Below are positions 16,334-20,252 of a DNA stretch of 64,000 nt, piece after piece. How positions within the stretch are numbered: position 1 is the first letter of the stretch; each line of letters begins with the position of its first letter. The position numbers and the translations under genes are program-made. The DNA is from a bacterium. GTDB taxonomy: Bacteria > Patescibacteriota > Patescibacteriia > UBA9934 > GWF2-40-263. The stretch covers positions 613 to 64,612 of the forward strand of contig JAJYIV010000002.1 in assembly GCA_021789915.1 (NCBI GenBank). The letters are read 5' to 3'. The notes under the pieces were generated by a model. That model was not told the DNA's origin. It saw only the letters and a list, made by a program, of their open reading frames with translations, and did not search any database.

Positions 16334-18099
16334 TCAAGTGGCGTTCCCGATGTTGTGCCGGCAGTGATCCGGCAGCATCGGCTGCAGCTTCCTGCGGAAG
16401 GCGGACGGCACGCGCTGCCACAGCAGGCGCGCCGCTTCGGGCTCGGCGGCGAGTCCCCAGAAGAGATCCTTCCATCCGTCGAGGCCGACGCCCTTCACGA
16501 AATCGTCCGGCTGGTCGCGGGTAAGGAACGCGAGCAGCCACGCCAGGAAGCGGAAGTCCCCGCCCCACCGGACGCCGAATCCCGGACCGACGGCCTGTAC
16601 AAGTCGGTGCGGCGTCAGAGATCCGTCGAACGCGCCGGACGCGAACAGCGCGAGGATGCCGTCGCGCAGCGGTTGTTCGCCGGCTTCCCACGCGTGCATC
16701 CAGAACCCGAGATCGAGGCGCTTGTTGTCGGGCCGCAGAATTTCCGGACCGAGATGACGCACCGCCACGTTGAGGCACGCGTGCACATCCGACGGCGGCA
16801 GATCGCTCGCGATGACCGCCGCCCACGGATACTCGTCTCGCATGCGCCGCTTCACGTCCGACGGCCATCGTTCGGCCCCGCCGAGGTATTGGCGCAGCAG
16901 CTTGGGCGGCAGTCGCAGCAGCACGTTCGCGTCCGCCGTCGCGACGACCAGGTCGGCGATCGTGCGCGACGCGCCGACGCCGTGGACGAAGATCCAGGCC
17001 GACCACGTGCGCAGCACTTCCTCTTCGCCCACGTCGATGTCGTCGCTCGCGAGAAACCGCGCCTTCACGGCGTCCACGAACGCGAGGAACGACTCCCTGG
17101 CGAACGCGACGAACGCGTCTTCGTCGCGCGAATCGTCCAACGGAACCTTGTCAAAGATGCGCTCCGGTTCCATGCACACGGTCGACAGCCGCAGCCATCG
17201 GCGCAGCGCGTCGACGGCCGCCGGCAATCGGCGCGCCACGGCCTGCGGCTCGAAGAACGTCCGCTCGACCAGATCCTTGAGCGCCAGCGGCTCGACCTGG
17301 AAGTTCAAATCCATGAAGCGGTCGAGGGACGTGCCGAGCCCGCCCGACACCGGGAGGAACAACGCATCCGGAAGCGTGAGCGCCCGGACGAAGTAGCTGC
17401 GGACGAACAGGTCCAGCAAGCCGCCGTGCGGGCACGGCGCGTCGACAGCCGGACGCCGGAACAGCCGGCGGACGTACACGTTGATGATGTCGTCGCCGCT
17501 GAACCAGCCTCGGATCGGGAACTGCTCCGCCGCCCGGCGCAGCAGCCGTTCGTTCTCGTCGCACGAAGCGACAGCGGCCAGGTACGCGGCGCGATCGGAC
17601 GGCGCGGACGCGCCGCGCGCGAGCGAGGCCAGCGCCTGCTCGCGCCCGACGCTCAGAAGCCCGAAGGCCGAGCCGCTGAGTACGACGACGTTCCGCCGCG
17701 ACAGGGACGCGGCGCGCACGGCGAGCTCCGAAAGGAGCGCGGCGCCGACACCGTACATCTCGAACAGCGACGCGGCACGCAGCATCACGACCGCGGCGTC
17801 CGCGTCGCCCTCCGCCGCTTCTTCGAGGCCGAGCGACAGGCACGCGCCGACGCGTTCCATGGCGGCGCGCCGGCCGTCCGGCTGCAGGAGATCGAGCTTC
17901 CGCTCGGCCGCCGCCTGAACAAGGCAGGCCTGCACGGCGTCCGCATCCGCGTCGCGCGCGGCGAGCTCCGCGTCCTGCCGGGCCCGCGCGTACGCGGCGC
18001 GGAAGAACGCGGAGGCGGTGCCCGGCTCTCGGCATTCGGCGCTCGGCGCGCGGAACGACCGCGCGAGCGCGCCTCCCGCTTGAACAATCGCCGTGTTCA
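16334..18099 (-). CDS. Hypothetical protein (about 588 aa), GTG start overlapping the upstream stop
   Basis: Natural composition from VNTAIVQAGG onwards. GTGA start/stop overlap with the upstream gene at about 18097-18099. No known motif. The N-terminal 149 codons of the track ORF are Arg-rich artefact. Confidence 0.5.
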
Positions 18100-18939
18100 C
18101 GGCCGCTCCTTCTCCGCGACGACCGCCTGCGCACGCAGCCGCTCGATGAGCGACTTCGCACTGACGGCGCTCGTGCGCGTCTTCGCTTCCTCCTGCGTCC
18201 GGCGCAGCAGCGCGGCGGCGCCCTCGGTCACCTCGACCGTCGCCGGGTGCGCGTCGAGCCAGTCGAACCGCTCTTCGAGCACGTGCAACGCGAGCGTCTG
18301 CCGATCGCCGGTGTTCATCCAGTAGACCACGGCGGAAGCGGCATTGAACGCCGCGGCGGCGATCTGCGTCACCCGCTCTTCCGCGTCTTCCGCGTCCAGC
18401 AAGGCGAGCGCCCAGTACTCGGCAGGCATCGCCTCGAGCGCCGCGCGCTTCCACGCGGCGTCGTTGCCGCTGTCCAGGACGGCGACGAGACGCTCGTACG
18501 CCTCGCTCGCGCGCACCTGGCACGGAAAGTTGCGGACGCCCCACAGCGTCACGGACGTCCCGACTGGATTGAAGTGGAGCGGGACGAGCCGGTTCCCCAG
18601 CGTCTTCACGAGCCCGCGCGCCTTGAGCGCCGCGTACTCCGCCGCCGACAGCTCGAAGTACCCGCCGTCCGCCAGCTCGTCGCCAAACCGGCCGAAGACC
18701 GGATCGAACACGTGCGCATCGCGCCGCAACACCTCTGGCACCTGCCCGGTCGCAAGCGCGGCGATGACGGCGCTGCGCGCGCTGCGCGTCGGCAGCGTCA
18801 GGAGCGCGGCGGCGACCTGCACGGCCGGCAGCGACGCGACGGCCGCCAAGCCTTGCGGCGTGTCGAGCCGAACGATCGAAACCGGCACGCCCGCCGGACG
18901 CGCGAGAGCTTCCGTCTGGTTTTGAAGGGTCTCACCCAT
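18097..18939 (-). CDS. Hypothetical protein (about 280 aa)
   Basis: ATG at 18937-18939 (MGETLQNQTE). Natural composition. Translationally coupled to the downstream 588-aa gene. Confidence 0.5.
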   Translation of the reverse strand: MGETLQNQTEALARPAGVPVSIVRLDTPQGLAAVASLPAVQVAAALLTLPTRSARSAVIAALATGQVPEVLRRDAHVFDPVFGRFGDELADGGYFELSAAEYAALKARGLVKTLGNRLVPLHFNPVGTSVTLWGVRNFPCQVRASEAYERLVAVLDSGNDAAWKRAALEAMPAEYWALALLDAEDAEERVTQIAAAAFNAASAVVYWMNTGDRQTLALHVLEERFDWLDAHPATVEVTEGAAALLRRTQEEAKTRTSAVSAKSLIERLRAQAVVAEKERP

Positions 18940-19051
18940 CTGTCTTCCTCCGAGGAAGCCTGGGCACCCGGGAATCGGATGCGCAGGCGGCCGAAGGAAG
19001 ACGGCGGACCATAACAATAAAACCGCCGCGTGTCAATCAAAAGCCGTCCGC

Positions 19052-19477
19052 TTACGACGCCAGCCCGAGCTTTGCCTCGACGACCTGCAAACGCCCCTCG
19101 AAGCGATCCATCCGCAAGGTCGGCGCGACCAGCTCCTGCTCGATCGTCAGCTGCAGCCGCGCCACCTGGTCGCTCACGGCAAGGACTTCCTGACGAACGT
19201 CTTGAAGATCCTCCTTTGTCGCGAAACGGTCGAAATCGTCTTTCGTGGCAAAGTTCTGCAGATCGTCTTTCGTGGCAAAGTTCTGCAGATCGTCTTTCGT
19301 GGCAAAGTTCTGCAGATCGTCTTTCGTGGCAAAACGGTCGAAATCGGCCTTCATTGCCACATTCTCCTTTACGAAACCGATGAATTCGTGCATTTCCGAC
19401 GTTAAACCTTCGACCTTCCGTTCAAGGCCATCGAACTTCTGCGCCAGCTGATTTGTCGTCAGGTGTTCCTCACTCAT
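19052..19477 (-). CDS. Coiled-coil protein with tandem (D/N)FATKDDLQN decapeptide repeats
   Basis: 141 aa. Four to five 30-nt DNA repeats at 19200-19340 (gtctttcgtggcaaagttctgcagatc). Heptad-like remainder. Confidence 0.55.
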   Translation of the reverse strand: MSEEHLTTNQLAQKFDGLERKVEGLTSEMHEFIGFVKENVAMKADFDRFATKDDLQNFATKDDLQNFATKDDLQNFATKDDFDRFATKEDLQDVRQEVLAVSDQVARLQLTIEQELVAPTLRMDRFEGRLQVVEAKLGLAS

Positions 19478-19595
19478 ATATCGCTTCGAAGTATACGTCC
19501 TGAATTAAATCGCTTCAAACGAAAAGATCCCGCGTCTGTTTCAGACAGGGGATCTTTTGTCTCTGTGTGCATTTAAGCGGAAAAAACGGGTTTCG

Positions 19596-20252
19596 TCAAT
19601 CGTCGTGTGTGGATATCTTCCGCTCCTTCAACAAGATAAGCGCCCGTCCAGACAACGGATTCTTAAGAATGCCTTCGATCTTCCACGCCGCCTCCTTGAA
19701 ATGAATGCCTTCCCCTTCCAATTGCTTCTTCCATCGAGTGAGCGGCACCGCATGCAGTCCGCCGTCTAAAGCGGCGGCAGGCGCATCGATTTCTTCCAGG
19801 TCCATCACGTGAATGGCGATGCCGCCTTCCCGTAACGCATTCCATGAATTCATCAGGACGTCCCACTGCTTTTCCGTCTCGATGAACTTCAAGAAGACGT
19901 GCGCGTACGTGATGTCGTACGGCCCGCCGGGGAAAGGTTTTGTCGCGTCATGTCGAATGACGCCAGGCGCCCCAGCAAGATGCTCGATAGCAATGTCCGA
20001 GGTCGTGAGATCGACGTCTCGACCCAACAATGACGAAAAGATGCGACGATGGTGATCGATGAAGCGCCTGTCCCCGCATCCGACGACGAAGATGCGAACG
20101 TGTTCATGCGCAGGATGACAAGGAACAACCGAAAAGATAGTTTTCAATTCCCGTTCCTTGATGTCTGCTCGGCGTTGAATTTCCGCATCGGACAGCGCCG
20201 CATACTTTTTGTGATAGTCGGAGAGGGCCATATGAATTTTTCTATTGCGCAT
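19596..20252 (-). CDS. Class I SAM-dependent methyltransferase-like protein
   Basis: VVGCGD glycine-rich motif I-like segment. About 218 aa. Stop abuts the pyrG start. Confidence 0.45.
   Translation of the reverse strand: MRNRKIHMALSDYHKKYAALSDAEIQRRADIKERELKTIFSVVPCHPAHEHVRIFVVGCGDRRFIDHHRRIFSSLLGRDVDLTTSDIAIEHLAGAPGVIRHDATKPFPGGPYDITYAHVFLKFIETEKQWDVLMNSWNALREGGIAIHVMDLEEIDAPAAALDGGLHAVPLTRWKKQLEGEGIHFKEAAWKIEGILKNPLSGRALILLKERKISTHDD

Follow-up and report, generated by a model that had tools for sequence, protein, structure and literature searches.

Gene content of the interval

In contig JAJYIV010000002.1 of a member of the Patescibacteriota (GenBank assembly GCA_021789915.1), we analyzed a window of 64,000 nucleotides (nt), a high-GC stretch (65.6%), and within it the four-gene interval between pyrG and the gene of an RlmI-family rRNA methyltransferase (rlmI). 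Two adjacent genes of this interval, which encode proteins of 280 and 588 amino acids (aa), are the main subject of this work. The RlmI-family protein of the window was nearest (52 to 63% identity) to metagenome-assembled genomes labeled Patescibacteria or Candidatus Uhrbacteria. The minus strand carries, in this order, L9, pyrG (CTP synthase, 685 bits; 20254 to 21864), four open reading frames (ORFs), rlmI (14886 to 16211), L27, NifU, a 131-aa ORF, and MraY. The four ORFs encode a probable class I S-adenosylmethionine (SAM)-dependent methyltransferase (19596 to 20252, 218 aa when counted from the first ATG), a 141-aa repeat protein (19052 to 19477), the 280-aa protein, hereafter the partner (18097 to 18939), and the 588-aa protein, which is all-alpha and resembles the family DUF6178 (16334 to 18100). 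An earlier, sequence-only reading of this DNA had taken them as one block. The four ORFs are real, and since homologous pairs are present elsewhere, the 280- and 588-aa ORFs are genuine genes.

A coupled gene pair that recurs as a unit

The GTG start codon of the 588-aa gene overlaps the TGA stop codon of the partner gene by 4 nt (GTGA), a junction that the sequence-only reading had recognized and whose exact site is 18100 to 18097 on the minus strand. An AAGGAG sequence lies 5 nt upstream of this GTG, and the overlap together with the internal ribosome-binding site indicates that translation of the two genes is probably coupled. The order of partner followed by large gene was kept in all 11 other genomic contexts that we examined, so that the overlap, the internal ribosome-binding site, and the kept gene order of a translationally coupled two-gene operon were all found. 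The tight coupling claimed for the two genes therefore stands, and the unit that they form recurs well beyond the window.

The upstream ORF measured 250 to 285 aa in nine of these contexts. In one other (L096, where L numbers designate loci), the called gene is 218 aa long, and 8 nt separate its start from the end of the contig. In another, the partner is split into ORFs of 127 and 149 aa (L010:9144-10004) by an in-frame TAG (9549 to 9551), with a GTG four nt later, and the large gene is intact; a nonsense mutation, a mistake in the assembly, or a gene that is truly in two parts could each account for this. The spacing between the two genes was a 4-nt overlap in three contexts (L001, L010, and L095), a gap of 2 to 21 nt in four (L013, L007, L008, and one further contig), and a gap of 70 to 154 nt in the remaining four. 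Homology of the upstream ORFs to the 280-aa protein was established by alignment (18 to 44% identity) and by profile search, with the upstream genes of L095, L096, L097, and one further contig classed by position and size only.

Neighboring genes differed in each locus that bears the pair, and the position of the pair differed in each lineage examined. When all neighbors of eight pair loci were compared against each other, only the pair itself recurred, apart from one weak match between MraY-family proteins, and no third conserved gene stood beside the pair in these eight loci. Neither the methyltransferase nor the repeat protein was found next to the pair in any of the 11 other contexts.

Proteins of this family are very rare. 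When 1.84 billion (1.84e9) cluster representatives were scanned in full with HMMER, 27 family proteins were retrieved, 14 of them with E values below 1e-30. A word-indexed search found a single relative with 43% identity, and a metagenome scan recovered nothing beyond a contig already known. The pair was seen only on contigs of Patescibacteria (Uhrbacteria-like) or on contigs of similar composition, and searches of viral contigs and plasmids gave no relatives. No housekeeping homolog was found for the 280- or the 588-aa protein.

Among the genes adjoining the pair, several act in DNA processing: ComM and RmuC (L007); RadA, RecG, and a GIY-YIG protein (L010); UvrA and UvrC (L013); DnaB and RecR (L011); a PIF1-WYL helicase and a Y-family polymerase (DinB) (L095); and a gene of the DNA_alkylation repair family (L008). 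Such genes are commoner beside the pair than we would expect, which we treat only as a lead.

The 588-aa protein and its partner

The sequence-only reading had found no assignable motif in either protein of the pair, which holds for the 280-aa protein and only in part for the larger one. The 588-aa protein matched Pfam DUF6178 (PF19676) with 30.5 bits, above the gathering threshold of 25.5 (E value of 1.8e-7). The match covers only positions 304 to 391 of the model (88 of 561), and 251 to 455 in the best relative, so that the full-length DUF6178 architecture of ca. 561 positions is not present. All 24 aligned family members matched DUF6178 at E values of ≤5 (the best being 6.7e-13), and no other model was matched consistently; one relative (P0018) is named "DUF6178 family protein" at the NCBI. 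The family thus shares a core of ca. 200 residues with DUF6178, but lacks the N-terminal ca. 250 and the C-terminal ca. 100 positions of the model, carries a C-terminal extension of its own of ca. 350 aa and, unlike DUF6178, always comes with a separate partner gene of ca. 270 aa. We regard the 588-aa protein as a variant of this catalogued, uncharacterized family with a divergent architecture. DUF6178 is a family of unknown function, and membership therefore says nothing about mechanism; the literature that we searched held no mention of DUF6178 or PF19676. One member, in a Candidatus Uhrbacteria contig (P0016; L013:8001-12698), is 1,565 aa long. Its N-terminal DUF6178-like region precedes seven repeats of the Pfam motif INT_rpt (formerly PHINT_rpt, "integrase repeat unit"), and even here a partner gene, of 275 aa, lies directly upstream.

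The invariant positions of the family alignment are L90, L92, A103, G119, R216, W366, and W412, that is, only leucine, alanine, glycine, arginine, and tryptophan, and the closer subfamily adds the motifs FWxxAW and DEYPW. No constellation of acidic, histidine, or cysteine residues suggestive of catalysis was found in this alignment, and neither protein of the pair yielded a domain or fold of a nuclease, ATPase, NADase, protease, or membrane effector. Foldseek comparisons with PDB and BFVD returned only generic solenoid noise. Locally, the structure of the large protein was weakly similar to FliG and MgtE-N, and Pfam MgtE_N matched the C-terminal end of P0018, also weakly (E value of 0.0077). 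When four MgtE N-domains from the PDB search were aligned to the family with hhalign, the large protein gave a P value of 0.078 at the position homologous to this end, and the partner one of 0.024 at its N terminus. We take these three MgtE_N signals, weak but concordant, as a lead toward a fold class, that of helical-repeat interaction modules, and not as evidence of membership.

The partner is acidic (isoelectric point [pI] of 5.4) and had no Pfam, NCBIfam, or PDB sequence match. Profile-profile comparison detected no relationship between it and the large protein. On reading the sequences, with no predictor run, neither protein showed an obvious membrane segment or signal peptide.

The FliG- and MgtE-N-like similarity could also be read as that of a lineage-specific cytoskeletal or envelope/division scaffold, a helical assembly tied to the dcw (division and cell wall) genes. 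The window pair lies ca. 3 kb from mraY-ftsW-murG, one homologous pair is directly followed by a MraY-family gene (L011), another is ca. 4 kb from mraZ-rsmH (L013), and a third is near a glycosyltransferase gene (L008). However, such proximity is expected by chance in small genomes, most contexts of the pair have no envelope genes, the structural matches are weak, and on reading, the sequences offer no obvious membrane anchor or export signal. A role of this kind therefore appears improbable to us.

The methyltransferase and the repeat protein

The methyltransferase gene starts 1 to 22 nt past the pyrG stop codon, depending on the ATG used, and is probably cotranscribed with pyrG. The public gene call places its start at the second ATG (19596 to 20231, 211 aa). 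Its likeness to SAM-dependent methyltransferases, already proposed from the translation, was borne out by a match to Pfam Methyltransf_11 above the cutoff (24.0 bits against 21.2; E value of 6.3e-5) that spans profile positions 3 to 94 of 95, and by a glycine-rich motif I, read from the sequence as VVGCGD, which together identify a class I SAM-dependent methyltransferase. The only other Pfam match was to Methyltransf_25. The protein resembles the Methyltransf_11 (UbiE or small-molecule) type in that 92 of 95 positions align above the gathering score, but its match is weak (24 bits), it has neither an NCBIfam equivalog nor a close solved structure, and the loci of the relatives that we searched contained no homolog of it. 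Comparison with PDB sequences gave only insignificant matches, to small SAM methyltransferases. The DNA-methyltransferase motifs (D/N/S)PP(Y/F) and the C5-type PCQ and ENV were not seen in the translation, and the Pfam DNA-methyltransferase families (N6_Mtase, N6_N4_Mtase, and DNA_methylase) gave no match. NCBIfam, PADLOC, and PHROGs held no significant match, and searches of viral contigs, phages, and plasmids retrieved no relatives.

The 141-aa protein is acidic (pI of 4.6) and built around nonapeptide repeats. The tandem DNA repeats described in its gene are there, with a period of 27 nt (9 aa) instead of the 30 nt first reported: Tandem Repeats Finder delimited a perfect in-frame array of 3.7 copies encoding FATKDDLQN at 19235 to 19333 (100% matches, score of 198), and degenerate units on both sides extend it to 19196 to 19365. 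Homologs with 38 to 55% identity were found at L015:9633-9902, L015:6964-7434, and L019:9601-9957. They share the N-terminal motif TTNQLAxxFDGL, the motif F(I/L)KEN, and the C-terminal motif ELVAPTxRxDRLExRV..KLGL with the window protein. In the nearest relative (L015), an 89-aa homolog lies exactly between pyrG and rlmI and a 156-aa paralog upstream of pyrG, and in L019, a 118-aa homolog lies between L9 and rlmI. With homologs at this site in both of the nearest relatives, the repeat protein is a resident here and not an insertion. In the alignment, the homologs have the unit DLENFMTKD once, against about six units in the window protein, which points to the 27-nt array as a recent, local, lineage-specific expansion. 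The 156-aa paralog has independently expanded another unit, the 7-residue MDQKFxQ, to about seven copies, which suggests a small protein family prone to repeat expansion.

Database matches of the repeat protein to coiled-coil families were all weak. Those to Pfam CCDC90-like/DUF1640 and DUF2730 had E values of 0.03 to 0.04 (far below gathering scores), PHROG families of no assigned function were matched with an E value of 5e-9, and there was one marginal phage match. It is like short coiled-coil proteins of the TK(D/E)DL type in being small, acidic, and helical looking and in its repeated FATKDDL, but unlike a canonical coiled coil it has a 9-residue period and no heptad, and its true relatives form a small lineage-specific family.

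Three predicted units at a variable site

We then compared the site across 80 loci anchored on RlmI in species-representative genomes, searched with all window proteins. Seven relatives (L015, L026, L032, L035, L036, L037, and L047) retain at least the pyrG-rlmI backbone, and most of them also L27, nifU, and mraY. Each of the seven has 100 to 465 nt between pyrG and rlmI, and in none were the pair or the methyltransferase present within 10 kb on either side. All are Patescibacteria or Uhrbacteria, and the region is therefore variable and not universal in the lineage, which satisfies the criterion that the sequence-only reading had set. The methyltransferase and the pair flank the resident repeat protein, which implies two separate insertions. 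As expected of an island, syntenic relatives lack the pair and the methyltransferase at this site, but not the repeat protein; the other marks of an island, deviant composition with mobility signatures, were not found. We detected no flanking direct or inverted repeats that would mark the ends of a mobile element and no integrase nearby in the window, the closest tRNA is >4 kb from the interval, and only the methyltransferase and repeat-protein genes deviate in GC content at third codon positions (GC3). In three of the Uhrbacteria relatives the gap between pyrG and rlmI holds another small ORF of 95 to 120 aa (L035:9554-9916, L036:2325-2630, and L037:9646-9933). These ORFs are unrelated to the repeat protein, and two of the three have in common the motif NPTQQTALR. 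Judging from these different small ORFs, the site seems to collect small genes.

A scan of 14.5 to 22.6 kb for sigma-70-like consensus sequences returned four promoter-like sites, against 1.1 ± 1.0 expected. All four are intergenic and on the minus strand, before L27, rlmI, the 141-aa gene, and the 280-aa gene. The site ahead of the repeat-protein gene (TTGAAG-17-TATACT; 19518 to 19490) has a −10 hexamer that ends 12 nt before the ATG, with no visible Shine-Dalgarno sequence; with so short a distance, the mRNA would be nearly leaderless. The one that precedes the 280/588 operon (TTGACA-17-TATGGT, −10 extended by TG; 19036 to 19008) is the best match of the region (10 of 12), and GGAGGA lies 6 nt ahead of the ATG of the 280-aa gene at 18939. 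The site before rlmI is at 16277 to 16249. Terminator-like hairpins on the same strand complement these sites. One with 17-nt arms (88% complementary, 3-nt loop) and a T-run follows the methyltransferase gene (19558 to 19522) and looks like an intrinsic terminator closing a pyrG-methyltransferase unit, another was found at the end of the 141-aa gene (19058 to 19043), and a third, strong one, with a 10-bp stem (seven G-C pairs) and a T-run (16325 to 16302), marks the end of the 280/588 operon and precedes the promoter-like site of rlmI. From these sites three transcription units are predicted: pyrG with the methyltransferase, the repeat protein, and the 280/588 operon. GC3 values agree with a split into separate units, at 0.88 to 0.90 for the pair, 0.79 to 0.90 for the backbone genes, 0.64 for the methyltransferase, and 0.70 for the repeat protein; the low value of the methyltransferase suggests a fairly recent acquisition.

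These observations bear directly on the idea that the four genes are a single modification or defense cluster, in which the methyltransferase would work with the large proteins. In this genome the genes are adjacent, on one strand, and inserted as a group between pyrG and rlmI, and the methyltransferase and the repeat protein have a lower GC3 in common. However, neither of the two accompanies the pair in any of the 11 other contexts, terminator- and promoter-like sites part the units, the GC3 of the pair is far from that of the methyltransferase, the repeat protein sits beside rlmI in relatives that do not have the pair, and the methyltransferase is of the Methyltransf_11 type, with no DNA-methyltransferase motifs on reading. 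The cluster is thus largely refuted and, in our estimation, highly improbable, and the block first described is not a single unit, as it is divided in three by the predicted signals and only its 280- and 588-aa genes co-occur across loci.

Elsewhere in the window, ARAGORN called a tRNA-Ala with the anticodon AGC, unusual for bacteria (24470 to 24545), and a tRNA-Ala(GGC) of 94 nt, long for such a tRNA (40523 to 40616). A 918-aa Ala/His-rich ORF (30597 to 33353) crosses a low-GC stretch (0.56 to 0.59 at 32 to 34 kb, with 0.66 in the window). A Rfam scan of positions 14000 to 23000 gave zero regulatory-RNA matches.

Is the interval a defense or modification island?

The earlier reading had offered, as a speculation, that the block has the look of a defense or modification island, and this was not supported. 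PADLOC-DB v2 gave no match for the 588-aa protein, the 141-aa protein, or the methyltransferase, and for the 280-aa protein a single chance-level match to Cas8a (E value of 0.005, 14 bits), so that no protein of the block gave a meaningful match to a hidden Markov model of a defense system. Nor does the block contain a restriction-modification system, for which DNA-methyltransferase motifs or families and a nuclease partner would be expected: the methyltransferase has no such motifs, no nuclease domain is encoded in the block, and the contexts of the pair are mostly housekeeping. NCBIfam held no significant match for the pair, and PHROGs none for the 588-aa protein.

Next to one homologous pair, and divergent from it, we did find a 1,054-aa type IIG restriction-methyltransferase (PADLOC E value of 1e-298) and an AbiLi-like ATPase (E value of 3.6e-72). 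This stretch (L001:3224-7748) is a small defense islet in a Patescibacteria-like contig.

The pair by itself might be a new two-gene system against phages or mobile elements. Like known defense systems, it is tightly coupled, variable in location, and absent from close relatives; its distribution is rare and patchy, with a different position in each lineage, and it is missing from the syntenic relatives. One homologous pair (L001/L002) is directly beside the type IIG enzyme and the AbiLi-like ATPase, another (L095) is followed by the PIF1-WYL helicase, which has weak matches to defense models, and a third (L010) by the GIY-YIG gene. Unlike known defense systems, however, it has no PADLOC match above chance, no detected effector-type domain or fold, and mostly housekeeping neighbors. 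Only one or two of its 11 other contexts are defense-like, and defense-type neighbors such as the type IIG enzyme and the AbiLi-like ATPase occur beside one homologous pair only. Moreover, the codon composition of the pair is fully native, there is no integrase, tRNA, or flanking repeat at its insertion, and it has no relatives on viral contigs or plasmids. We consider such a system unlikely. A defense function of the pair is at present unsupported, and what the pair forms is an ordinary uncharacterized accessory operon and not a recognizable defense or modification island.

A putative scaffold and its significance

The account toward which we lean, on balance, is that of a mosaic of three independent units, of which the pair would act as a scaffold or adaptor. 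Its structural and comparative parts alone we hold with high confidence; the scaffold mechanism is tentative. The first unit is a small class I SAM methyltransferase directly after pyrG, the second a small acidic repeat protein in which an ancestral single nonapeptide has expanded recently, and the third the self-contained 280/588 operon, the sole recurrent module. In this operon, translation would be coupled through the overlapping stop and start codons and the internal ribosome-binding site, which would yield the two proteins in about equal amounts, and these may assemble into a cytoplasmic, nonenzymatic, alpha-helical repeat scaffold or adaptor. What suggests an interaction scaffold is that the helical modules resemble HEAT/TOG and MgtE-N/FliG folds, through which characterized proteins contact one another. 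Given the recurrent helicase, nuclease, and repair-gene neighbors, an accessory adaptor in DNA maintenance would be the most plausible of the more specific guesses. What the data show is a self-contained operon with the geometry of coupled translation, strictly paired in about 25 lineages at variable locations, with native codon usage, a fold class of helical repeats, and neither a catalytic nor a defense signature of known type; complex formation, the lack of catalysis, and a DNA-related role are the parts that we infer.

Several points weigh against this account. The interaction of the 280- and 588-aa proteins is a proposal from the gene layout, and the term nonenzymatic rests on the absence of recognizable motifs and folds; the conserved R216, W366, W412, and FWxxAW might form a new active site. 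The pattern of DNA-repair neighbors was spotted post hoc and without a formal background model, and it is absent in the window and in L097. Promoters and terminators were called by similarity to consensus sequences, and not from measured transcripts. Lastly, an origin of the partner by gene fission, as the N-terminal 250 positions of DUF6178, was considered and found no support, as partners alone had no DUF6178 match and artificial fusions of partner and large protein still began to match at position 251.

A bolder version of the DNA-related role is that the pair is a new two-protein module specific to the candidate phyla radiation (CPR) and acting on DNA, either as a mobile defense system or as an adaptor that recruits helicases and nucleases (ComM, RecG, PIF1, or UvrC), with a helical fold that has no solved counterpart. 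We regard this as rather unlikely. What probability the scaffold account and its rivals leave falls to functions that we are not able to name.

Patescibacteria have small genomes rich in genes with no assigned function. To have defined an accessory operon in such a lineage is useful but unsurprising: family alignments and a structural model of good confidence now delimit a recurrent, strictly paired module and set it apart from unrelated neighbors. As far as our searches show, its obligate partner gene and its restriction to Uhrbacteria-like Patescibacteria had not been described. Should the pair turn out to serve defense, or DNA maintenance as an adaptor, by means of a new fold, the picture of how reduced symbiotic bacteria protect or maintain their genomes would gain from it.

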